DNA of 64,000 nt from the NCBI GenBank assembly GCA_963809365.1, contig CAWEJR010000023.1, positions 97,390 to 161,389 on the forward strand. The letters are read 5' to 3'. Origin of the DNA: an uncultured delta proteobacterium. GTDB taxonomy: Bacteria > Desulfobacterota > Desulfomonilia > Desulfomonilales > Desulfomonilaceae. The notes below the pieces were generated by a model, which saw only the letters and a program-made list of their open reading frames with translations, searched no databases and had not been told where the DNA came from. The position numbers were made by a program, and so were the translations under genes. Positions 4,877 through 63,010 of this stretch are shown one piece after another; positions within the stretch are counted from its first letter, which is position 1, and each line of letters begins with the position of its first letter.

Positions 4877-6547
4877 TCAAACCTTGAGGACAATGGTCTG
4901 GACCAGGGGTTTGCGGCCCAGGATTCGATTGATGTGCCTGCGGACCGCGAGTCGGATCGGTTCTTTGGAGTTGTCCCACTCTTCCGGAGTGCCGGGATCC
5001 AGTTCCGCTAATCGCTCTTCGATCGAGATGCGGACCCCTTCCAGCAATTCCGGTTCCACTTCATCAAAGGTAACGCCTCGTGAATGGACCTCCGGGCCCG
5101 CGATCACTCTACCAGTCTCTCTATTAATCACTAAGACCACGGTAACTAAGCCCACTTCGGAAAGCGTCCGCCTGTCGCGGAGAACATCGTGGCCTATGTC
5201 TCCGACGCCTTTCCCGTGCACAAAGACCCGACCAACTTCGAGTTGCTCGATCACTCGGGCCCCTTCGGGGGTGATCTCTACGAGGTCTCCATCCTGTGCT
5301 ACGAGAACCCTGTCAGCAGGAATACCTTCTTCTATTGCGATATGTGCGTGTCGCAACAGATGTCTATACTCTCCATGAATGGGTATGAAACACTTTGGAT
5401 GAACCAGGCGTATTAGGTATCGCAGTTCTTCCTCACTGGCATGCCCGGAGACATGGACGTCGGATACCTTCTCATACATCACGCGGGCGCCACGCCTGGA
5501 AAACTCGTTGATTATGTGCGTGATGGCCCTTTCATTGCCCGGAATGAACTTTGACGAAAGAACCACAACGTCTCCGGGCTTAACTTTCAGGAACTTGTGC
5601 CGGTCCAAGGCCATGAGAGAAAGTGCGGACATGGGCTCTCCCTGAGAGCCTGTGGAGAGTACCGTCACTTTCTCATCCGGTAAGCTCTCCACGTCCTTCA
5701 TGTCCACCAATATGCCGTCAGGAATGTCAAGGTATCCCCTGTCGGCCGCAATCTTGGCGTTGGACGCCATGGACCGCCCTACAAGAACAACCTTGCGACC
5801 GAATTCCTGTGCCAGATGGAGCACCTGTTGAACCCGGTGGATGTTTGAGGAGAAGGTAGCAATGAGGATGCGTCCTGCCGCCTCCCTGAAAATGATCTCG
5901 AAGGCGGGACGGATCATGCTTTCTGAGAGCGTGCTCCCTGTCTTTTCCACATTGGTGCTGTCCGAGAACAGCGCCAGCACTTCATTGCGCGCATATCCGG
6001 CGATCTTCTCCAGATCGCATAGGCGTCCGTCTATCGGAGTGGGGTCCAGTTTGAAATCGCCGGAATGAAGGATCACTCCCGCAGGTGTCTTGATGGCCAA
6101 GCCCACACCGTCGGCCACGGAGTGGCACATGGCGAAGAAACCTATCTCGAAAGGACCCAGTTGAACGATGCTGTCCGTGGAGACTACGTTTCTGACGCTG
6201 CTACCCATAAGGCCGAATTCTTCCAGTTTGTTCTCAATCAGCCCCATAGTGAGTCCCGTTGCATAAATAGGAGCGGGGATTTTCTTGAGAACGTAAGGGA
6301 GCGCGCCTATGTGGTCTTCATGACCGTGAGTGAGGACGATCCCCAGGACGTTCCAATCCTGCCGGATTACGACTTCCAGGTCGGGTATGACGATATCCAC
6401 CCCGGGCATGGACTCGTCCGGGAACATAAGCCCTGTGTCAATGATGAAGGCATCTTTGCCGAGAGCTACGATCATCATATTCAGACCGATTTCTCCCAGT
6501 CCCCCCAATGGAAGCACTCTCAGTTTTGGTGTCGGATCATCGCTCAT
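4877..6547 (-). CDS. rnj: ribonuclease J
   Basis: 556 aa. Metallo-beta-lactamase motif THGHEDHIG, beta-CASP architecture, and a typical RNase J N-terminus (LRVLPLGGLGEIGLNM). Confidence 0.9.
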   Translation of the reverse strand: MSDDPTPKLRVLPLGGLGEIGLNMMIVALGKDAFIIDTGLMFPDESMPGVDIVIPDLEVVIRQDWNVLGIVLTHGHEDHIGALPYVLKKIPAPIYATGLTMGLIENKLEEFGLMGSSVRNVVSTDSIVQLGPFEIGFFAMCHSVADGVGLAIKTPAGVILHSGDFKLDPTPIDGRLCDLEKIAGYARNEVLALFSDSTNVEKTGSTLSESMIRPAFEIIFREAAGRILIATFSSNIHRVQQVLHLAQEFGRKVVLVGRSMASNAKIAADRGYLDIPDGILVDMKDVESLPDEKVTVLSTGSQGEPMSALSLMALDRHKFLKVKPGDVVVLSSKFIPGNERAITHIINEFSRRGARVMYEKVSDVHVSGHASEEELRYLIRLVHPKCFIPIHGEYRHLLRHAHIAIEEGIPADRVLVAQDGDLVEITPEGARVIEQLEVGRVFVHGKGVGDIGHDVLRDRRTLSEVGLVTVVLVINRETGRVIAGPEVHSRGVTFDEVEPELLEGVRISIEERLAELDPGTPEEWDNSKEPIRLAVRRHINRILGRKPLVQTIVLKV

Positions 6548-7940: not shown

Positions 7941-8695
7941 TACTAACCTTCTTTCTAGTCAGCCGCAGCCGATGGCATGGCCGAGACTCAGAAAATGGTT
8001 TCTGCAACACCCGGGCGGCGGAGTGCGTGCCTGTCATTGAATTCAGGTACTGCCCTTCAACCTTCCGGGAGCGCGTATGGAGAATGATACATTAAGAAAA
8101 AATGGATCACAACTTGGGTCTGGTCTCCCGATAGGCACGCGCGTTTCCTTGTGTCGCGGCCGGATCTGCGAGTGATTGGGTAGTTTGGATACCCAAAACA
8201 TATGTAACTTTATAAGTTGACAATGTCCCGCCATGACCTATTCTGTCACTAACCGGGAATGGTATCGTGAGGTTCCGGGAGTCATCTTTCACCCCCTACG
8301 TCTTTTTTAGTTCGTAGGGGTTGACTTTTGTACGGACCAGAGATATTTTTAGAGACGAAAGGCCGTCTTCCATTTGTATCATGACTCCCCCCCCTTGATA
8401 CCTTACCGGAGACGGTCTTCATTTTTCTGGGGCTTGAATACTGGGGTTTTCCGGTGAGAGAGGCAATTGTTGCTGGTCAGAGTTGTTTCAGGAATCTCCC
8501 TTTGTCGTTTTTCCATTCCATACGCGCTGGTTCATCCGCCAATATCCTATTGAACCAAAAGTCACTTTCTCAGCGTAACAGCAGTCCCACGACAATGGGC
8601 TGGGTCTTTGAACCCCTTCGCCCCACGGAGCGCCTTGGTTCTCCCAGTCCGACTGTCAGGGTCACGGGGCTGATTTTCCCTGGAGACGCCTGAAA

Positions 8696-9607
8696 ATGTC
8701 GACGCGCAGACTCCCCCATTGGATTCACACAACGTTGCCCACTGCAGTCGCTGTTGCCGAGATGCGCGGTAAAGCGTACGGAAAGGGCCTTCACACCGTT
8801 TGCAGAGAGGCCCGATGTCCCAACCAGGGGGAATGTTCTGCCAGGGGCGCCGCGACGTTCCTTATACTCGGTGACAAATGCACTCGAAACTGTAGTTTTT
8901 GCGCCGTGGCACACGGGAAGCCAGTCGCTCTTGATGACGGTGAAGCCGATCTTGTGGCCGAGTCGGTCGCGGCCCTCCATCTGCGCCACGTGGTGATTAC
9001 CTCGGTGACAAGGGACGATCTCTCCGACGGCGGCGCGTCGGCATTTTCACAAACCGTGCGCGCCATCCGGAAATTCTCGAATCGCACCACCATTGAAGTG
9101 CTGATTCCCGACTTTCAAGGTTCAGCAGACGCCCTGCGGACAGTTATCGCTTCCAGGCCGGACGTCATAGGGCACAATCTGGAGACGGTCCCGCGCCTCT
9201 ACCCGGAGTTGCGGCACGGGTCCTTGTACCCGCGGTCCCTGGAGCTGTTGAGGCGCGTCGGCGAGTGGGGCGGAGACATAGTGACAAAATCGGGCATTAT
9301 GGTTGGTGTAGGCGAAACCCGAGAAGAAATAATGCACGTAGTGAGGGATTTGGTCGAAGTGCAATGCGCGGTGCTGACAATCGGGCAATACCTTCAGCCA
9401 ACACATCGTCATCATGCGGTCCAACGATTTGTTCCGCCACAAGAGTTTGAAGACCTGAAAGAGATGACAGTGGCCGCGGGAATGAAGGAAGTGATGTCCG
9501 GGCCTTTAGTAAGGAGTTCATTCAGGGCGGGCCAGATTGTTGAGAAGCTCAGGTCGTCGTCGGCCCTTCATCGAGACCGCGGTTCTGAAATCCGCGGCCT
9601 AGAGTAA
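8696..9607 (+). CDS. lipA: lipoyl synthase
   Basis: 303 aa. Auxiliary cluster motif CREARCPNQGEC and radical-SAM motif CTRNCSFCAV. Confidence 0.9.
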   Translation: MSTRRLPHWIHTTLPTAVAVAEMRGKAYGKGLHTVCREARCPNQGECSARGAATFLILGDKCTRNCSFCAVAHGKPVALDDGEADLVAESVAALHLRHVVITSVTRDDLSDGGASAFSQTVRAIRKFSNRTTIEVLIPDFQGSADALRTVIASRPDVIGHNLETVPRLYPELRHGSLYPRSLELLRRVGEWGGDIVTKSGIMVGVGETREEIMHVVRDLVEVQCAVLTIGQYLQPTHRHHAVQRFVPPQEFEDLKEMTVAAGMKEVMSGPLVRSSFRAGQIVEKLRSSSALHRDRGSEIRGLE

Positions 9608-30509: not shown

Positions 30510-31604
30510 GTGACCGACAAACAATTACCGTCTTATCTTCCAAAGAAGTTTCAGCGGATACACCTGGAGCTTACCAACAAGTGCAACTTCTCCTGCGTCT
30601 TTTGCCCGGACGGCCAGATGACCCGGAAGCGCGGAGTCATGGATGAAGCCCTGGCCCGATCTGCTCTGGATCAGATTTCTGAGCTTGCCTTGGCAGAGAA
30701 AGTGACCTTTCACGTAATGGGGGAGCCGTTGTTGCACCCCCGTTTTTTCCCCATTCTGGATCATGCTCACGCTCGCGGTCTAGCAGTCGGGCTCACCACC
30801 AACGGGGCACTCCTGAAACCTGAGACGATACAGGCACTGGCAGAGAGAGATCTGCACCAAATAGATATTTCCTTGCAGACCCCGGACAGAGAGAGCTTCC
30901 TCGCCACCCGTGGGACGCGTATGGACTTTGAAGATTACCGGGCACGAATACTCGATCTGTTGGCCGCGTGCGCTGCCAGACCTACGCTTCCCATCTTTAA
31001 GTTCCGTATCATGACCACGTCCTTTGCGAAGAAGATGCGAGATCAGCTTGGTATACCCAATTTTATGGGCAGCTCGGAAGTTCTAAGGAACACGATACAG
31101 GAATGGGCCGAAATAATTTATAAGCGGCTCGGCCTGGATGGCGACAGAGGGAACCTGTCCCAAAAGATAAAGAGAATCGGCATTCATGGATGGAACGTAA
31201 TCGAGGTCAGCCCAAATGTCTTCATAGAGACTTACGTGCTCACCGACTGGGGTAACGCCTTTGCCGAAAACGGTGTTATCGAGGCGGGACACGGCTATTG
31301 TTTCGGAATGCGCGACCATTTTGCCATTCTCTACTCAGGGGATGTTGTCCTATGCTGCGTAGACTTTGACGGACGCACCTCGATAGGTAACCTGAAGGAT
31401 TCATCGCTTCATGAAATTCTCCGCGGCCCTGAACTTGAACGTATAATGAAAGGGTTTCGGCTGGGACGTCTAGTCCACCCGCACTGTCGTCGATGCCTGG
31501 GAAGCGGCAGCCGTTTTGGCTCATGGATCAAGCCCGCTGCGTCCATCCTCGGACTGAAGATTCTCAAGCCTTTCTTCTACCGCAAATACAAGTTGTTCGA
31601 TTGA
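30510..31604 (+). CDS. radical SAM / SPASM(twitch)-domain protein
   Basis: 364 aa. CNFSCVFCPDG radical-SAM cluster motif. C-terminal Cys-rich SPASM-like segment GYCFG...VVLCCVDFDGRTSIGNL...HPHCRRCLG. Confidence 0.85.
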   Translation: MTDKQLPSYLPKKFQRIHLELTNKCNFSCVFCPDGQMTRKRGVMDEALARSALDQISELALAEKVTFHVMGEPLLHPRFFPILDHAHARGLAVGLTTNGALLKPETIQALAERDLHQIDISLQTPDRESFLATRGTRMDFEDYRARILDLLAACAARPTLPIFKFRIMTTSFAKKMRDQLGIPNFMGSSEVLRNTIQEWAEIIYKRLGLDGDRGNLSQKIKRIGIHGWNVIEVSPNVFIETYVLTDWGNAFAENGVIEAGHGYCFGMRDHFAILYSGDVVLCCVDFDGRTSIGNLKDSSLHEILRGPELERIMKGFRLGRLVHPHCRRCLGSGSRFGSWIKPAASILGLKILKPFFYRKYKLFD

Positions 31605-31837
31605 GATGTTGAAATTATTGCGTGAATCTTCCGGCAGGTAAGCGGCTGCTCCTTGATTCTTGGGAAAGAAAGGTTTACCTATAAATAAGATCACATGCCG
31701 GAAGGACGGGGGCCCGAATAGTGACTTCCTCTGAACGAGAGGAAAAGCAAAGATATCGAATCTCCGACGGCAGATTAGTCAGAAACTGCCCGGCAATGGC
31801 TTCAAATGCTGTTTTCGGGCTACCAGGAGGCAAGAAG

Positions 31838-32131
31838 ATGGACAAAGATCCCACATGCCCGCATTGCGGCACCCAGATGGATCCTATCGAGACTCCGCTG
31901 GATTCATCCTGGGGTGGCGAGACACATTATGTCTGCTTTAATGACGAGTGTTGCTACTTCAAGAATAGCTGGGAAGCCCTTGATATGCAGGGAGTCACAA
32001 AGACAGGTTATCGTTGCCGCATAGACGCCCGAGGAGCGTGCGGTCCAATGGCAGTTTGGTCTTCCGACGCTCTGAAGGATCAGGTCTGCCGGAACATCGA
32101 GGAAAAGGATTCTGGAAAAGGCGCTGATTGA
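31838..32131 (+). CDS. Zn-ribbon protein (hypothetical)
   Basis: Trimmed to MDKDPTCPHCGTQM..., preceded by AGGAGG. Second Cys pair in VCFNDECCYF. Confidence 0.5.
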   Translation: MDKDPTCPHCGTQMDPIETPLDSSWGGETHYVCFNDECCYFKNSWEALDMQGVTKTGYRCRIDARGACGPMAVWSSDALKDQVCRNIEEKDSGKGAD

Positions 32132-32160
32132 CGAGATGCCACAACTGACATTTGGTGCGA

Positions 32161-32188
32161 GGGCGACTTACAGGTCGCCCGTTTTGTT
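32161..32188 (+). terminator. rho-independent terminator after the Zn-ribbon gene
   Basis: GGGCGAC-ttacag-GTCGCCC followed by GTTTTGTT. Confidence 0.6.
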
Positions 32189-32294
32189 GGTGGAGTAGTA
32201 GTGTAGCGATTCTCAAAAAAAGGATGACAAACATTGGCCGGTAAGGTACATATAACTCTCTTTTTAGCCATGTGTCATAGTGAAGGAGGAAAGG

Positions 32295-32567
32295 ATGCAG
32301 TGGATTAAACCAGCTAAGATATTTCTCTTGGTGGCCGCCCTTGCCATCGCGGCAGTGCCTTTTGCCGCGGAAGCGGGCTGATGTGGTTTTGTCCCCTCCT
32401 GGTCAGGGGGAGGCAGCAGTTATAGTGCGGGGGCAGCTTCTTATGGCGGCGCTGGGTACGGATATGGATATTACGGATATCCCGGCCAGTTCGACTACGG
32501 ACAAGCGCCGGCCCGGACTTACAAAGCCAAGAGCCGATCTTCCAAAGCAAAGCCAGCCAATCAGTAA
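32295..32567 (+). CDS. candidate secreted selenoprotein/peptide (in-frame TGA at 32379-32381); alternatively a +1-frameshifted small secreted protein
   Basis: AAGGAGG (32283-32289) lies 5 nt before the ATG. Product reads MQWIKPAKIFLLVAALAIAAVPFAAEA|G-TGA-CGFVPSWSGGGSSYSAGAASYGGAGYGYGYYGYPGQFDYGQAPARTYKAKSRSSKAKPANQ*. The 61 codons after the TGA have no ATG, GTG or TTG. Not in the supplied ORF track because each half is under 60 aa with a start. Confidence 0.4.
32391..32414 (+). promoter_or_regulatory. SECIS-like hairpin downstream of the in-frame UGA
   Basis: GUCCCCUCC-UGGUCA-GGGGGAGGC. Nine-position stem with 6 G-C pairs, 2 G-U wobbles and 1 C/A mismatch. The stem starts 10 nt after the UGA, and 18 nt separate the UGA from the apical loop, which contains GGUC. 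Confidence 0.35.
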
Positions 32568-32591
32568 GCGATAAGATTATTGAGCTACGCG

Positions 32592-32619
32592 GGAGGATCT
32601 CACCAGAATGAGGTCCTCC
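32592..32619 (+). terminator. hairpin after the small-peptide gene (terminator-like, weak U tract)
   Basis: GGAGGATCTCA-ccagaa-TGAGGTCCTCC, an 11-bp stem with one mismatch, 25 nt after the TAA. Confidence 0.35.
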
Positions 32620-32910
32620 TAATTGAAAATCCCAGCTCGGAATAGCACGGCAGGAAAATGAGAGGCCGGAAGCTATGTGTCCCACATCGGGGCACAAATA
32701 CTTCCGGCCTTGTGGTTAACGCGGTCGAATAGTCGACTTCCTACATTCCCGACCAGTCTTTCTTATTTCCGAAAGCAAGCCAAAGAACTGCTGTTGTTAC
32801 CGATACTACTAAAAGTATCTCCATCTGTGCCTCACCTCCACCGAACATTCTCACTACAGGAGGAGGCAACATCATGTCAATAGCATTTTTGTCTAGGACT
32901 GGCGGCCGTT

Positions 32911-34056
32911 TCAGAGGCGCCCTTCCAAAGAATGAGCGTACCCCGTCAATTCCGCATACCCACGCCCCTTAATTTTCTTTCCGTCCCGGAACCCCTGGGC
33001 AGTGACCGCGCCCTCCCAGTAGATAATCCCTGTTGACGATCCGGAGGTAAGCTCCTGGGCTTCAATTGCGGGTGTGACCTCCAGCCTGATGTTACGGCCG
33101 GGGATCTCCACGGTCCACCCGGACGGATAGACAGCCTTTGTCGTGGGACTTGTCCATGTTCCTTTGGGCTGGATCACGATCCGTTCTTCCTCCAGGTCAA
33201 CCGCAGGGCCTTCCTTGGGAACGAAGGTGCCGAAGGCTCGCTCAAACGTGTTATCCTTCTTTCGCAAATGGAACACCATGATTTCGGTTCCGTCATCGAG
33301 TTGAAGACTGAACCAGTCCCATCCGCTCTGGTCGTTCTGGAGAATGCTGGAGCCGAATTCATGGTCCATCCAGGCCAGCCCTGTGACAGTGTGGTTGATA
33401 CCCTTGAAGGTCAAGGTCCCTTCTGCCTTGAGTCTTGTGAAAGAGTAATAATAAGATGCTTGATCTTTTGAATCTCCCTTTCGGCTGAACCCCGCGTCAC
33501 CGTGCAAAACAACCGGCTTCAGCGGCAGGAGTCGAAGGTTGAGCGCGTAGTCTTGCTCTCTGGCTGTAATTTGTATCTCGTCTCCCTGCATCTTCGCGGT
33601 CCAGTCGCTGACGCCCACGTCGAGATCGCCCAGGGCCGCGTGAGCAAGTCCCGGACCCTTGCGTGTCAAAAGTTCGGTGTGGAAGAATTCACGGTTGGTA
33701 ATGTCGGTGATGGCAAAATGGGCTGGATATAGGTCCCTGACCGCCCAGGCGGACAGTTTACGCGTAGGTTCACGGACCAGGGTGCGGCGAAAAAAAGTCA
33801 ATTGGAATCCCCACCCGTGATCTTTGTCGGAATCAAGGTTCCCTGTGAAATACCACCACTCCGTCTGAAAATCAGGATGCTTTCCATGATCTTTGGGAAA
33901 GGTGAGGACTCGCCGCGGGCCTGTGTCGGCAATTGGAACTTCCGAGGCCAAGGGTGCGGACGGAAAAAAGGCCAGTGCGCACAGCCAAACTGCCAAGATT
34001 CGAGTCACTATCAACTCCTTGTCTAAAGAGTGAACGTACGGAATTATGGCAGACAT
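32911..34056 (-). CDS. AttH/CrtC-like (lipocalin-like, carotenoid 1,2-hydratase family) secreted protein
   Basis: WWYFTGNL...GFQLTFFR and AWMDHEFGSS blocks. N-terminal signal-like ILAVWLCALAFFPSAPLASE. Start trimmed to the second Met. Confidence 0.7.
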   Translation of the reverse strand: MSAIIPYVHSLDKELIVTRILAVWLCALAFFPSAPLASEVPIADTGPRRVLTFPKDHGKHPDFQTEWWYFTGNLDSDKDHGWGFQLTFFRRTLVREPTRKLSAWAVRDLYPAHFAITDITNREFFHTELLTRKGPGLAHAALGDLDVGVSDWTAKMQGDEIQITAREQDYALNLRLLPLKPVVLHGDAGFSRKGDSKDQASYYYSFTRLKAEGTLTFKGINHTVTGLAWMDHEFGSSILQNDQSGWDWFSLQLDDGTEIMVFHLRKKDNTFERAFGTFVPKEGPAVDLEEERIVIQPKGTWTSPTTKAVYPSGWTVEIPGRNIRLEVTPAIEAQELTSGSSTGIIYWEGAVTAQGFRDGKKIKGRGYAELTGYAHSLEGRL

Positions 34057-34184
34057 CCGCGGTTGAGGTGAAGCTCTTTGAGCATGACGGAACAAAAGCG
34101 ATCATCCTTGGAGTTAATATGGTATAGGAAGCAGCGGTCCACAGGGTAAACTCAGATACAAGATTACAGCGGAGCCATTTGAGC

Positions 34185-48272: not shown

Positions 48273-49703
48273 ATGGGAGAAGATCCCGCCACAGCCCTGT
48301 TTCGCTCGATCCCTTCCGTAGACAGCCTCTTGTCTGATCCCTCATTGGCTTCTCTCAGGGAGAAATATTCGGAAGAAATAGTGAAGAGTATGGTGAGGCG
48401 CGCCCTGGAGGAACTTCGAGACGAGATCCGTCAGGGAAAGGCGTCGCACACGGACTGCTCGGCCTCCGCGCTGGTTCAGCGCACGTCAAGAATAGCTGTG
48501 GAGCGGGTAGGGCCGAAACTCTGTACGGTAATAAACGCCACGGGAGTGATTGTTCACACCAACCTCGGACGTTCACCGTTGTCGAATAGGGTTATGGAAC
48601 GGATATCCGAAGCCGCGCTTTCTTATTCCAACTTGGAATACAGCCTTGAAGGCGGCCGGAGAGGAGAGAGAAACGCTCACCTGCGACAGCTCATGCAGGA
48701 ACTGACCGGCGCGGAGGCCGCGCTTGCAGTCAATAACAATGCGGCTGCCGTTCTGCTGGCGTTGTCCAGTCTGGCCGCGGGGCGAGAAGTCATAGTTTCC
48801 AGGGGTGAACTCATAGAAATTGGCGGCTCCTTCCGGATTCCCGACGTGATGGCTCGATCCGGGGCAATACTGAAGGAGGTCGGCGCCACCAATCGGACTC
48901 ACCCCAAAGACTACGTTGAGGCAATTAGTGCAAATACCGCTCTGATCTTGAAGGTGCACACAAGTAATTATCGGATCGTCGGCTTCACCCGCGAAGTCGA
49001 GCTCGCGGAACTGGTGGCCATAGGGAAAGAATACGCAATCCCAACGATGATGGACCTTGGAAGCGGCTGCCTGGTGGACCTGTCGCCGTACGGCCTGGCG
49101 GAAGAGATAACCGTCCAGGAAGTCCTTGCCAAAGGTGTGGACGTGGTGAGTTTCAGTGGGGACAAGCTTCTTGGCGGCCCCCAGGCTGGGATTCTGGCCG
49201 GCCGCGTGGATCTCATAGAAAGAATGCGCACAAATCCCCTAGCGCGTGCCCTACGAATGGACAAGCTTACTCTTGCAGGTCTCGAAGCCACTCTCGTAGA
49301 GTACACGAGGCCGGAGGGGCCGGCCGCTTCCATCCCGACACTGGCCATGATAACCAGGTCCCAGTCGGAGCTTGCGGAATCTGCGGCCGCGCTTGCCGAC
49401 GCGATACGTAAGCGCGTCGGAGACCGCGTCGAGGTAAGCATTGAGCCGGGAATCGGCAGGGTAGGGGGCGGAGCGCTGCCGATGGGCGACCTACCGGGCC
49501 CGCGGGTGGCCATTCATCCCCGCCAAATTTCAGCCGCGCGTCTGGAGCAAGGGCTCAGATTGGGCAGTCCACCGGTAATCACTCTGGTTAAAGACGATGC
49601 CGTGCTCATGGACCCTCGAACTCTTCTTGGCGATCAGCCGTCGATGATTCCGGGACTTGTGCAGGAAGCACTAGACCGCGGTACTTCCACCAATGATGGG
49701 TGA
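48273..49703 (+). CDS. selA: L-seryl-tRNA(Sec) selenium transferase
   Basis: 476 aa with INATGVIVHTNLGRS, VNNNAAAVLL and FSGDKLLGGPQAGI (PLP Lys). Confidence 0.9.
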   Translation: MGEDPATALFRSIPSVDSLLSDPSLASLREKYSEEIVKSMVRRALEELRDEIRQGKASHTDCSASALVQRTSRIAVERVGPKLCTVINATGVIVHTNLGRSPLSNRVMERISEAALSYSNLEYSLEGGRRGERNAHLRQLMQELTGAEAALAVNNNAAAVLLALSSLAAGREVIVSRGELIEIGGSFRIPDVMARSGAILKEVGATNRTHPKDYVEAISANTALILKVHTSNYRIVGFTREVELAELVAIGKEYAIPTMMDLGSGCLVDLSPYGLAEEITVQEVLAKGVDVVSFSGDKLLGGPQAGILAGRVDLIERMRTNPLARALRMDKLTLAGLEATLVEYTRPEGPAASIPTLAMITRSQSELAESAAALADAIRKRVGDRVEVSIEPGIGRVGGGALPMGDLPGPRVAIHPRQISAARLEQGLRLGSPPVITLVKDDAVLMDPRTLLGDQPSMIPGLVQEALDRGTSTNDG

Positions 49704-60646: not shown

Positions 60647-61138
60647 ATGAAACGAATTGCTTGCCTGTTGATCCTGATTTCATTACTGTATCCGCCGATA
60701 TCCCGAGGAGCCGATGAAGCGGTCTTTCTCAACGCTTTCGGCGAGACCGCGACCGCTTATCTCAACGACTCTTTTCTCCTGTTGGGAACTACGGCTGACG
60801 GGTTCGTGGCAGACATAATCCCCAAAGCAACTGCGCTTGAGATCGTCAAGAACGTCCAAAAACGAGTCCAGATGATTCGGGCGAAGTTCCAGGCCGTTGC
60901 CGCGAGCCGGATTTCGAAGGCGGACAAACAGCTCATCGGACTCCTGGACAATGCTTATGGCTGCATGGATCATCAAGCCTGGGCATTGATCCAGTACGTT
61001 CAAGAAAAGACGCCTGACACGGCCCGCCGCTTCGAAGGACAGAGGACGGACTGCCTCAGCCACATGAAAAAAATAGCTGACTTCTACTCGACTTTACCTC
61101 CATCGCCGGAAGTCCCGAAACCCCTCAGCACGCGCTGA
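60647..61138 (+). CDS. secreted hypothetical protein
   Basis: Trimmed to MKRIACLLILISLLYPPISRGA, a signal peptide. Confidence 0.45.
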   Translation: MKRIACLLILISLLYPPISRGADEAVFLNAFGETATAYLNDSFLLLGTTADGFVADIIPKATALEIVKNVQKRVQMIRAKFQAVAASRISKADKQLIGLLDNAYGCMDHQAWALIQYVQEKTPDTARRFEGQRTDCLSHMKKIADFYSTLPPSPEVPKPLSTR

Positions 61139-63010
61139 TCGCCAACCCTCATAGTAAAACGTTCCCTGTCGAGATACTCGAGTAGAGGTATATTATACTT
61201 CCTTGAAGATCCGGTGATTTCATGAAACTGCGAGGGGGTCAGGCCTCCTTCCCGCTGTATGAACTCGACAACCTTCCGCTTGACTTCGTTGACAAAAGTT
61301 CCGGAAAAATAGAGATCTTCTTTGACTCTAACAACCTGACCTTCCTTTTCCAGAAGATTCAAGAGGTTCCGGACCTGCTTGACGTCCGTGGCCGTGGCTT
61401 GGAGTATCTCCTTGAGAACCGGCGGCGAGTTTCCACCACCCACGATCAATTTCATCAGGCGGTCCTTAAGGCCCTTCTCATCATCTTTTAGCCGGATCTC
61501 ATGAGTAGAGTGGCGGACCGTGTCCCCTTGATCCACAACCTCACCCTTTGCCACCAGGCTCTCGATCACGGTCTTGAACAGCTTGTCGCCGCCGGGAACA
61601 GTGGAACGTAACTCCTGTCTGGGTATTCCGGCCTTGAGTGGCTGCTCCTTGTGGAAAGTGGTGAGCTTCTCCCGTATCTTGTTTTTTACCACATCGAAAA
61701 AGTCACTGTGGATCATTCGGTTTTCAGTAGGGTCAAAACGGATCACTGTCCTGGCGTTCCTAAGAGAATCCAGTGACCTTGTCCAATCGCTTGGCCGAAA
61801 AGCCTGACATCCCCAGCAATTCGTTCCGCGCGACCCCGACCAGACCGCCGCTACGAACCAATGAGGCCACAATGGCGGCATCATCCTCGTGATCCAGTTC
61901 CACGAAGGACTTGGCTGAGCGGGCTCTTAGTTTGGTTCCTCGCGGATTAACTACCACTCCCCCTCCTAGAGTGATGGATGGAGAAAGTGCCCTAATTACA
62001 AAGCGGTCGCCGGTTGACGGAACCACCGGAGAGGAGGTTCTCAACTGGGCCAACGTTTCCTGGCCGGGCTCGAGGGCTTCCAGGTCCGGGAGCACCACAC
62101 GGGCTTCTACTTCAGACGTGTAATGGTGAAGCCTCACTTTGCGGCGATTTTTCAGGGCTATTGGGCAACGCGCAAGCGCTGTAAGTTTTACGTCCACGAT
62201 ATATGAGGGGCGGAACTCTCCGGGATGAGTTAATACTTCTCCCCTGTGGATCTGCGCCTGTTCCAAACCTCGGAGGTTGACGGCAACTCGTTCGCCGGGA
62301 AAGGCTTTTTCCTCGGGCCTGTTGTGAGATTCGAGCGAACGCACGGACGAACGTAAACTGTCGGGCAGTATCTCGACCTCGTCGCCTGTTGAGAGCGTGC
62401 CCGATATGAGAGTTCCGGTGACAACCGTCCCGTGTCCCTTCATGGTAAAAACTCTATCCACGGGCAGGCGAAGCAGTCCGTGAACCGGCCGTTGGGTGAC
62501 CTGCAACGCCAATTGTTTGAGGGTATCACGAAGCGCGTCTATTCCTTCGCCGGTCTTGGAAGAAACCCGCATCATAGGAACGTTTTCCAGAAAGGTTCCC
62601 TTGACCGCCTCTTTTGCATCTTCCTCGGCAAGAAGAGCAAGCTCCTCATCCACCAGATCCAACTTTGTGAGCACGATCAGGCCCTGCCGAATTCCGAGGA
62701 GGCTGAGGATGTCGAGGTGCTCCGTCGTCTGCGGCATTACCCCCTCGTCCAGAGCAATCACGAGCGCGGCTATGTCTATACCGCCTGAGCCTGCCACCAT
62801 TTGACGGACAAACTTCTCATGTCCCGGCACGTCCACGATACCCATGCGAATGTCTTTGTCCAGATCGAGGAACGCGAAGCCTAGCTCTATACTGATGCCG
62901 CGCTGCTTCTCCTCCTTAAGGCGGTCTGTATCAATGCCTGTGAGAGCGCGCACCAGTTCTGTCTTGCCGTGATCTATATGGCCTGCAGTGCCGAGGATCA
63001 CTCGTTTCAT
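61084..63010 (-). CDS. selB: selenocysteine-specific elongation factor SelB; +1 frameshift near 61790
   Basis: G1 [12 protein letters not shown]3 DVPGHEKF, G4 TKLD in ORF 61760-63010. Winged-helix C-terminal domains in ORF 61084-61884. The combined length of about 640 aa is typical of SelB. Confidence 0.85.

Follow-up and report, generated by a model that had tools for sequence, protein, structure and literature searches.

We describe here a small gene at positions 32295 to 32567 (plus strand) of a 64,000-nt stretch of DNA, hereafter the window, from an uncultured delta proteobacterium of the family Desulfomonilaceae (assembly GCA_963809365.1, contig CAWEJR010000023.1, positions 97,390 to 161,389). 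A first-pass annotation had proposed that this gene encodes a secreted selenoprotein in which an in-frame UGA is decoded as selenocysteine (Sec), and had named a 1-nt insertion as a competing explanation. All of its coordinates proved correct when positions 31900 to 32900 were reread and 32295 to 32567 were translated. The gene and the elements in and around it are as follows, types A and B being two of the Sec-containing sequence types listed further below.

32224 to 32252, plus strand: promoter-like pair ATGACA-N17-TACATA, found by direct reading; putative promoter.
32283 to 32289, plus strand: Shine-Dalgarno sequence AAGGAGG, 5 nt before the ATG and invariant in all type A and type B loci.
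32295 to 32567, plus strand: coding sequence of a predicted 90-residue selenoprotein precursor, including Sec29, and the TAA stop (translation, homologs, and substitution rates).
32295 to 32375, plus strand: predicted Sec-type (general secretory) signal peptide, residues 1 to 27 (sequence and 29-member alignment).
32379 to 32381, plus strand: UGA predicted to be read as selenocysteine, residue 29 and position 2 of the predicted mature peptide (conserved TGA and Cys homologs).
32382 to 32424, plus strand: extended hairpin, lower stem, starting directly after the UGA (RNAfold, window and orthologs).
32395 to 32410, plus strand: apical stem-loop CCUCCU-GGUC-AGGGGG, resembling an element of the SECIS (selenocysteine insertion sequence) kind (14 Sec-form sequences).
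32382 to 32516, plus strand: Cys30 and a Gly/Ser/Tyr-rich low-complexity region, predicted to be disordered (predicted local distance difference test [pLDDT] below 50), with YG repeats conserved across the family.
32517 to 32564, plus strand: Lys/Arg-rich C-terminal tail TYKAKSRSSKAKPANQ; a basic tail is found in nearly all 29 members.
32592 to 32619, plus strand: 11-bp hairpin beyond the stop codon, shared by types A and B and the Cys form at locus L033.

The gene starts at the ATG at 32295 and stops at the TAA at 32565 to 32567, and its conceptual translation is MQWIKPAKIFLLVAALAIAAVPFAAEAG*CGFVPSWSGGGSSYSAGAASYGGAGYGYGYYGYPGQFDYGQAPARTYKAKSRSSKAKPANQ*, or, with Sec, MQWIKPAKIFLLVAALAIAAVPFAAEAG-U-CGFVPSWSGGGSSYSAGAASYGGAGYGYGYYGYPGQFDYGQAPARTYKAKSRSSKAKPANQ. 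Direct reading places the in-frame TGA at 32379 to 32381, at codon 29, and the 61 codons that follow it up to the TAA are open and include no ATG, GTG, or TTG, as had been noted in the first-pass annotation. We consider this to be a genuine Sec-recoded gene in which the UGA is read as selenocysteine, with a probability of about 0.85 to 0.9 on the comparative evidence presented below. Translation would start at the ATG at 32295, and with the UGA at 32379 in the ribosomal A site, the downstream mRNA hairpin would recruit SelB together with GTP and Sec-tRNA(Sec). Selenocysteine would be inserted there in place of termination, and translation would continue in the same frame for 61 codons to the TAA at 32565.

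Homologs were collected by a protein search, by scanning GTDB species genomes and, with a DNA pattern, metagenomes, and by full HMMER and profile searches. The protein search returned P0001, a 90-aa protein with 92% identity from a Joint Genome Institute (JGI) metagenome, whose DNA (L001) carries the same TGA, at which JGI wrote Trp. The genome scan yielded six loci (L002 to L007) from Desulfomonilaceae and "delta proteobacterium" metagenome-assembled genomes (MAGs), all with the TGA; the metagenome DNA-pattern scan added L013, L017, L019, L023 to L025, and L029; and the HMMER and profile searches added more distant members, whose DNA was then inspected. A protein-pattern scan of metagenome contigs gave 600 low-complexity candidates, none of which was confirmed. 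An aligned in-frame TGA is thereby found in more than 20 contigs that stem from various projects and sequencing technologies (L001 to L007, L013, L017, L019, L023 to L025, L029 to L032, and L034 to L037, with a tandem copy in L038), and these fall into four sequence lineages.

Sec type A, AEAG-U-C[GS]F[VM]PSWSGGG: the window, L001, L003 to L006, L013, L017, L019, and L029.
Sec type B, AEAS-U-WNC[VA]PWSGGG: L002, L007, L023 to L025, and L034 to L037.
Sec type C, FCS-U-AGCFPSWSGGS: L030 to L032.
Sec type D, VEAA-U-AGCSRSWSGGS: L038, 8728 to 9012, plus strand; an uncalled gene about 480 nt downstream of a Cys paralog.

An ortholog search had been proposed in the first-pass annotation as a check on its reading, and every Sec-form ortholog keeps the TGA, with Cys forms aligning at the same place. 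Both outcomes that the annotation had named as refuting its reading were checked, and both checks favored selenocysteine. Public databases present these genes in several ways. The JGI calls P0001, P0003, and P0008 translate the TGA as Trp, some of the gene ranges overrunning the real stop, and the public record P0009 (37 aa) ends at the TGA. In L038, the Sec paralog at 8728 to 9012, which begins MRTLRF...VVEAA-U-AGCSRSWSGG, lies in tandem with the Cys form P0019 (8001 to 8252), so that one genome carries a Cys/Sec pair of the same small protein; the public gene call at the type D site is a 115-aa open reading frame (ORF) on the opposite strand (8418 to 8765). With Trp written at the TGA, products stopped at it, and genes left uncalled, the family is therefore mis-annotated wherever it is found.

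About 25 homologous clusters of 81 to 107 aa have the same architecture and carry Cys at the aligned site, in the contexts GCPAC, ACAC, GSCPLC, TCSSC, and TCWNC. The Cys motifs are CxxC or CxC, with clades characterized by CPAC, CAC, and CPLC. The closest pairing is provided by P0010 (L033), which reads TGC-TGG-AAC-TGT (CWNC) where type B reads TGA-TGG-AAC-TGT (UWNC) and which shares its promoter region and 3' hairpin with type B. P0002 (CSSC) is another close relative of the U-WNC forms, so that Cys aligns with the TGA position in P0010, P0002, and about 25 further members; in type A (U-C), U can be aligned to the first Cys only with an uncertainty of one position. Working criteria for a new selenoprotein family call for at least two Cys homologs, at least two different TGA-containing sequences, and a SECIS-like stem-loop (PMC1088965), and judging from the sequences all three are present here. 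Most members of the family are CxxC or CxC proteins; in four lineages, Sec has taken the place of the first Cys, a replacement that occurred several times in parallel. On these comparisons, the proteins constitute a previously undescribed family from Desulfomonilaceae and related anaerobes, Gly/Ser/Tyr rich and with an N-terminal Sec/Cys pair.

The RNA downstream of the UGA folds into the hairpin that had been described in the first-pass annotation. Its nine-position stem (32391 to 32399 with 32406 to 32414) is present, with one C-A mismatch and two G-U pairs. The letters of the UGGUCA loop were also given correctly, but U32400 and A32405 pair as well, leaving a GGUC tetraloop at 32401 to 32404, 19 nt after the UGA. 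RNAfold lengthens the helix down to 32382 to 32424. In the alignment of Sec forms, 87.5% of the cells of the lower stem are paired, versus at most 69% in shifted registers, without significant covariation. The apical element CC(U)CCU-GGUC-AGG(R)GG occurs in each of the 14 distinct Sec sequences and in every one of the four Sec lineages, and its six pairs are 100% paired in the 14 sequences, pair 19-30 occurring as C-G, U-G, and U-A. All Sec forms have a stem of 5 to 8 bp and the GGUC loop 16 to 19 nt after the UGA; counted from the U of the UGA, the loop comprises nt 23 to 26 in types A, C, and D and nt 20 to 23 in type B. The six Cys-form loci have no hairpin at the corresponding place, not even one of 5 bp, and decay of the 5' arm in the Cys form L033 has turned GTCCCCTGG into CTCCGCCGA. 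The hairpin is hence kept in all Sec forms and absent from the six Cys-form loci, a strict co-occurrence with the UGA among the sequences compared. In 13 sequences, the distant type C among them, the stem codons CCC, TCC, TGG, and TCA are free of synonymous change; third positions vary freely in other conserved codons, namely, those for Pro, Gly, Gln, Tyr, and Ala. The (S/P)-W-S-G-G motif that the hairpin encodes is therefore confined to Sec forms and looks like the protein-level footprint of the RNA signal.

The element resembles the fdhF-type SECIS recognized by SelB in Escherichia coli in that it is a stem-loop that follows the UGA directly within the coding sequence and has a small apical loop containing G and U, in a genome with selA and selB. 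The loop of E. coli fdhF also reads GGUC. Two of its loop bases, G23 and U24, are essential in E. coli, where 11 nt separate the UGA from the 17-nt upper stem-loop (PMC8659212). The claim that spacing and a G/U-containing loop fit a bacterial SECIS holds for all Sec forms, which have the GGUC loop near the E. coli distance. The element described here differs in that it lacks an equivalent of the bulged U17, has a U-A pair closing the loop, and lies at a distance from the UGA that is off by -2 to +1 nt, and in that no Rfam model matches it: neither a gathering search of the whole window nor a permissive search of 32150 to 32750 gave a relevant match.

The window also harbors two genes for the Sec machinery.

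48273 to 49703, plus strand: selA, L-seryl-tRNA(Sec) selenium transferase (TIGR00474, 596 bits versus a cut-off of 268).
61084 to 63010, minus strand: selB, Sec-specific elongation factor, split (TIGR00475).

Both genes, which the first-pass annotation had listed as present, are recognized by their profiles; selA is intact, and selB is split. It consists of two overlapping ORFs, 61760 to 63010 and 61084 to 61884, which match TIGR00475 with 338 bits (profile positions 1 to 346) and 54 bits (positions 380 to 580), respectively. A reassignment of TGA in the genetic code was also considered and rejected, because TGA ends 13 of 29 long ORFs and is the stop codon used most often otherwise. The window was also searched for a second selenoprotein gene, which might have served as a host benchmark for the SECIS; of 64 read-through candidates, the two that were inspected were noise.

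Several observations weigh against the reading of this gene as Sec recoded. The selB gene in the window is split; the break is probably a 1-nt assembly error or indel, as in the fragmented genes of the long-read MAG loci L004 to L006, but the Sec factor may really be broken in this genome. The 64-kb window contains no tRNA gene, and so no selC, and selD was not seen in it among the few ORFs that were checked for selD. The hairpin is without a bulged U equivalent to U17 of E. coli, and its fold energy in the single sequence is unremarkable for a G+C-rich stretch (z = +0.9 versus shuffles). Loosely SECIS-like hairpins follow 2.6% of the 2193 TGA trinucleotides in the window; in favor of the reading, a GGUC tetraloop follows only one of them, that at 32379 to 32381. 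Given the z value and this background, significance comes from the comparison of homologs and not from the single sequence. Covariation in the 14-sequence alignment is not significant, shuffles reaching the observed score in 128 of 500 cases; it is weak because the stem hardly varies, although the structure is fully compatible. The stem, moreover, also encodes the conserved peptide (S/P)-W-S-G-G, so that constraints on RNA and on protein can be separated only by codon choice and by the Cys forms.

Two other explanations for the in-frame TGA have to be weighed against Sec recoding. The TGA could be an assembly artifact, a 1-nt insertion in the GGG run at 32375 to 32377, with the true protein in the +1 frame. 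Both the G run and an open +1 frame (ORF 32341 to 32574) are present as noted in the first-pass annotation, frame breaks do exist in the window (the split selB) and in related long-read MAG loci, flanking genes are fragmented in L004 to L006, and the reading frame of this gene is itself broken in L007 and L017. The last two illustrate the error rate of these assemblies: L007 has a 1-nt indel in an AAAA run at about 6150 to 6200 and L017 an extra A before the TGA at about 1780, and in both the TGA and the hairpin are intact. The TGA and its frame relation are nevertheless identical in more than 20 contigs of unrelated projects. Types B, C, and D and the type A locus L005 have a codon other than GGC before the TGA, and the sequence reads ...GCG AGT TGA in L002, L005, L007, L023 to L025, and L034 to L037; with AGT in place of GGC, as in several lineages, the G run on which slippage could occur is missing. 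The coding sequences measure 270, 273, 279, 282, 285, or 288 nt, always a multiple of 3 and always with the TGA in frame, and in the type A alignment, the variable columns downstream of the TGA number 14, 12, and 31 at codon positions 1, 2, and 3. Ratios of nonsynonymous to synonymous substitution rates (dN/dS; NG86 estimates for five equal-length type A sequences) downstream of the TGA are 0.18 to 0.45 in frame 0, about the same as upstream, versus 1.2 to 19 in the +1 frame, where dN exceeds dS in every pair. A stop interrupts the +1 frame in L005, and full-length Cys homologs match the frame-0 product along its whole length. The comparative data therefore refute the insertion, to which we assign practically no chance, on the strength of the conserved TGA, the AGT-TGA lineages, and the frame-0 dN/dS; they show that frame 0 is translated after the UGA and that the UGA is a real, conserved recoding site.

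The UGA might instead be read through without Sec, with a near-cognate or suppressor tRNA inserting Trp, Cys, or Gly, or might mostly terminate translation, in which case the hairpin would merely stimulate read-through or the full-length product would be minor. Stable structures after a stop codon can promote read-through, the hairpin lacks the E. coli-type bulged U, and selB is split in the window. We nonetheless regard this as improbable. The UGA aligns with Cys, the classic Sec/Cys signature; the GGUC loop lies at the distance of the SelB-binding loop of E. coli fdhF; and selA and selB are present in the window. Purifying selection downstream of the UGA is as strong as upstream, which is not expected of a minor by-product.

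The Sec reading predicts a small exported protein. The first codons encode a predicted signal peptide, as had been proposed, with a K-containing basic n-region, a 15-residue hydrophobic core, and A-E-A at positions -3 to -1; in 29 family members the n-h-c layout, the core, and the AxA site are conserved, Ala at -1 is invariant, and small residues are conserved at -3. Residues 1 to 27 would be cut off after A-E-A, before G28, leaving a periplasmic product of about 62 residues that would begin G-U-C-G. AlphaFold2, run with the 29-sequence alignment, models the signal segment as the only helix and gives the mature part a pLDDT below 50 and no secondary structure, so that the mature chain of about 62 aa, with Sec at position 2 and Cys at position 3, is predicted to be intrinsically disordered. 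A further example of the basic C-terminal tail among the 29 aligned members is KSKKRAPKEKPAAQ. No curated Pfam or NCBIfam family covers the protein, apart from a match to Pfam Chorion_1 (PF01723, insect chorion protein; 24.8 bits versus a cut-off of 22.3) that spans the signal peptide and the Gly/Tyr-rich region and that we read as probably one of composition.

Three assignments of the protein were rejected. ExtJ (NF040942), a small protein of the selenite/tellurite reduction operon, matched 1 of 29 members, in the signal peptide only, with 11.9 bits (E = 0.22) versus a cut-off of 52.5. A thioredoxin-fold UxxC/CxxU oxidoreductase finds no Pfam or NCBIfam thioredoxin match, and the mature part has the low pLDDT and lack of secondary structure given above. 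A lipoprotein (signal peptidase II substrate) was dismissed by inspection: the lipobox is [LVI][ASTVI][GAS]-C with Cys at +1, and position -3 here is Glu, Trp, Gly, or Asp. The distance from the invariant Ala to the first Cys or Sec varies by 1 to 2 residues across the family, and because of this varying spacing and the frequent Glu at -3, signal peptidase I fits better than a lipobox.

Conserved elements flank the coding sequence on both sides. Upstream, AAGGAGG is present 5 nt 5' of the ATG, and ATGACA (32224 to 32229), the 17-nt spacer, and TACATA (32247 to 32252) are all present, as first reported. A consensus promoter scan did not call this pair at 32224 to 32252, because its second hexamer ends in A. 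About 80 nt 5' of the ATG are near-identical between type A and type B paralogs despite their differing flanking genes. Counterparts of window positions 32215 to 32294 are near-identical in L001 to L007, L013 to L029, and L033 to L037, including paralogs in unrelated contexts, and only the 17-nt spacer varies, around a CCGG/GGTG core. A near-identical upstream region in unrelated contexts suggests that the whole unit was duplicated or moved; it possibly also contains the site of a shared regulator. The terminator reported for the preceding gene was called by the terminator scan as well (stem at 32161 to 32180, then the T-run GTTTTGTT). Downstream, the 11-bp stem (32592 to 32602 with 32609 to 32619) was confirmed, but no T-run follows it; it is not a canonical intrinsic terminator, and the terminator scan of the window did not call it. 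The hairpin, GGAGGAUCUCA-CCAGAA-UGAGGUCCUCC, is kept downstream of the stop in L001 to L007 and L033, that is, in Sec types A and B and a Cys form, with compensatory changes in L033 (AACCUCA/UGAGGUU) and L005 (U-G to U-A). It probably marks the transcript end or may stabilize the mRNA. Because the promoter/5' untranslated region (about 80 nt) and the 3' hairpin travel with the gene, positions 32295 to 32567 constitute a self-contained, monocistronic gene for a small, predicted exported selenoprotein.

The neighboring genes vary between types. In the window, a radical SAM/SPASM gene (30510 to 31604) and a Zn-ribbon gene (31721 to 32131) lie upstream and a CrtC-type lipocalin gene (32911 to 34095, minus strand) lies downstream, and these neighbors are shared only by close type A orthologs with full synteny (L003 to L006). 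The radical SAM/SPASM protein fits no NCBIfam family, the best match being TIGR04317 (tungsten-cofactor maturase; 87 bits versus 380), and the product of 31721 to 32131 is a 136-aa Cys-rich, Ogr/Delta-like Zn-ribbon protein; the two could be a maturase with its substrate or partner in their own right. The other neighbors in the window are unrelated (SbcCD-like, PAS, and amidase proteins). Type B genes lie beside toxin-antitoxin, recombinase, and histidine kinase genes, and type C genes are also found among unrelated genes. The sole recurrent neighborhood is that of a Cys clade ("MRIV"), to which the genome carrying the tandem Sec type D (L038) belongs. The gene in this clade follows genes for an ExtKL/MccSep multiheme (seleno)cytochrome (NF040886, 308 bits) and a PF04060 Fe-S protein, and ArsR, a MacB-type ABC transporter, and ACR3 arsenite pumps (TIGR00832, 433 to 454 bits) are encoded within a few kilobases; the order of the ExtKL, PF04060, ArsR, and ACR3 genes differs between contigs. 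In L008, L038, and L040 to L044, genes for thioredoxins, rhodanese, MauE/DoxX, a DGC-domain protein, a HEAT-repeat protein, DUF4405, the ExtKL/MccSep-type cytochrome, a 98-aa protein, and the PF04060 Fe-S protein precede the peptide gene, and genes for ArsR, the MacB-type ABC transporter, a CdhD/HgcA-like Fe-S protein with a corrinoid domain, and ACR3 follow it. The window and the loci of Sec types A to C have no ExtKL, ACR3, ArsR, rhodanese, DGC, or DUF4405 homologs. MccSep/ExtKL is essential for respiration of elemental sulfur (PMC13510729).

As to function, we tentatively propose that the vicinal Sec/Cys pair at the free N terminus may be a reactive center in the periplasm, either redox active or binding soft metals, metalloids, or chalcogens. 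A selenenylsulfide redox couple might arise between the two residues, or the pair might chelate, for example, As(III), Hg, Cu(I), sulfane sulfur, or Se; the peptide would be kept on the anionic envelope or on mineral surfaces by its cationic tail and its Tyr/Gly-rich body. Haft and Gwadz have argued that CC and CU motifs mark heavy-metal-handling selenoproteins (bioRxiv 10.1101/2022.07.06.499078). This functional proposal is weakened by the spacing of the Sec/Cys pair, which varies (UC, UxxC, CxC, and CxxC) and so argues against one fixed metal geometry, by the gene context, which is not conserved among Sec types A, B, and C, and by the As/S/Se-related neighborhood, which comes from one group of related contigs only. 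A bolder and somewhat more doubtful version would make this the first class of intrinsically disordered, exported mini-selenoproteins: a peptide of about 60 residues whose N-terminal Sec-Cys "hook" would shuttle or capture chalcogens, metalloids, and soft metals (S0/polysulfide, Se, As(III), Hg, and Cu(I)), which would be anchored on the envelope or on mineral particles through its Tyr/Gly-rich body and Lys tail, which would act beside ExtKL/MccSep respiration or ACR3 detoxification, and in which (S/P)-W-S-G-G would be present only for the SECIS RNA.

The main functional alternative is that the gene encodes a genuine selenoprotein that acts as a secreted cationic antimicrobial or an adhesive or matrix peptide, like Gly-rich bacteriocins and microcins or Tyr/Lys-rich adhesives. 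The small, cationic, Gly/Tyr-rich, and predicted disordered product with its N-terminal Cys pair would suit such a role, as would a mobile, self-contained unit with paralogs at unrelated genomic sites and a Chorion_1 match that reflects structural-protein composition. We consider it unlikely, however: the neighborhoods of the Sec loci contain no conserved adjoining immunity, export, or processing genes, a Sec-type signal peptide leads only to the periplasm of a diderm cell, and the Cys clade adjoins ACR3, ArsR, and ExtKL genes. Replacement of Cys by Sec is, in addition, typical of catalytic or metal-binding sites and not of structural disulfides. A ribosomally synthesized and posttranslationally modified peptide (RiPP) is very improbable. 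In that case the radical SAM/SPASM enzyme encoded at 30510 to 31604, 0.7 kb upstream, would mature the precursor, as in the SbtM "selenobiotic" system, and the hydrophobic N terminus would be a leader and not a signal peptide. The upstream gene does have Radical_SAM and SPASM domains, the order of radical SAM, Zn-ribbon, and peptide genes is kept in L003 to L006, and NCBIfam includes a family of Sec-peptide maturases (TIGR04082, SbtM). This shared order carries little weight, though, because these loci are close orthologs with complete synteny, and there is no radical SAM neighbor in types B, C, and D or in any Cys form. The match to TIGR04082 is 30 bits versus a cut-off of 350, the radical SAM gene is divided from the peptide gene by a terminator and by a distinct, conserved promoter region, and the N terminus has an ordinary signal-peptide n-h-c layout and an AxA site; that the promoter region and 3' hairpin travel with the peptide gene likewise makes a RiPP unlikely.

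The proposed selenoprotein has partial counterparts in known systems. Like selenoprotein families computed by Zhang and Gladyshev and in similar work (PMC1088965, PMC12013277), it has Sec in a UxxC-type motif; those families, however, are mostly thioredoxin-fold or globular enzymes, whereas this is an exported peptide of about 62 residues, predicted disordered and of low complexity, with no Pfam or NCBIfam family. With the CU/CC selenoproteins of Haft and Gwadz (SaoL, SaoB, SaoC, and HgcA; bioRxiv 10.1101/2022.07.06.499078) it shares adjacent Sec and Cys and database products that are truncated or mis-translated, and some of those proteins (SaoC) are small "dark matter" proteins with signal peptides, for which soft-metal binding has been proposed. 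It differs from them in having no sequence similarity, in the order UC instead of CU, in the location of the motif at the mature N terminus instead of the C terminus, and in the absence of an SAO gene neighborhood. Mammalian thioredoxin reductase has a C-terminal GCUG redox center whose vicinal Cys and Sec can form a selenenylsulfide. The Gly-flanked vicinal Cys/Sec pair on a flexible chain terminus is common to both, but here the motif is mirrored (GUCG) and lies at the N terminus of a predicted disordered, secreted peptide with no known flavoprotein partner; moreover, the U-C adjacency is not conserved, since paralogs use U-WN-C or U-AG-C. Vicinal-thiol sites are also known from ArsR (CVC) and ArsD (CC), and nickel superoxide dismutase has an N-terminal "Ni-hook." Close thiolates (CxC, CxxC, or CC-like) near a free N terminus made by leader cleavage are a shared feature, and the Cys clade is encoded next to ArsR and ACR3; there is, however, no homology, the spacing is variable here, and Sec types A to C are without ars neighbors.

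No such family is described in the text of the Sargasso Sea, Global Ocean Sampling, Olavius symbiont, deep-Sep, and Haft and Gwadz papers or of reviews from 2022 and 2026, in which sequences are given only in figures. The recoding mechanism is the well-known bacterial one. What appears unusual about it is the combination of predicted secretion, predicted disorder, Sec at the mature N terminus, and parallel replacement of Cys by Sec.

Our results add a selenoprotein family that automated annotation gets wrong everywhere, and one that, unlike the usual enzyme-type selenoproteins, is tiny, is predicted to be secreted and disordered, and carries Sec as the second residue of the predicted mature chain. 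A clean natural experiment is available in the comparison of one short protein across four Sec and many Cys lineages, including a Cys/Sec tandem in one genome. The RNA signal visibly dictates the protein sequence, SWSGG occurring only together with the UGA, and this should be useful for refining SECIS descriptors for Desulfobacterota. If the idea of a metal or chalcogen carrier is true, the family would point to selenium being used outside the cytoplasm in a new way, in the anaerobic cycling of sulfur, arsenic, or mercury in wetlands and peat soils.

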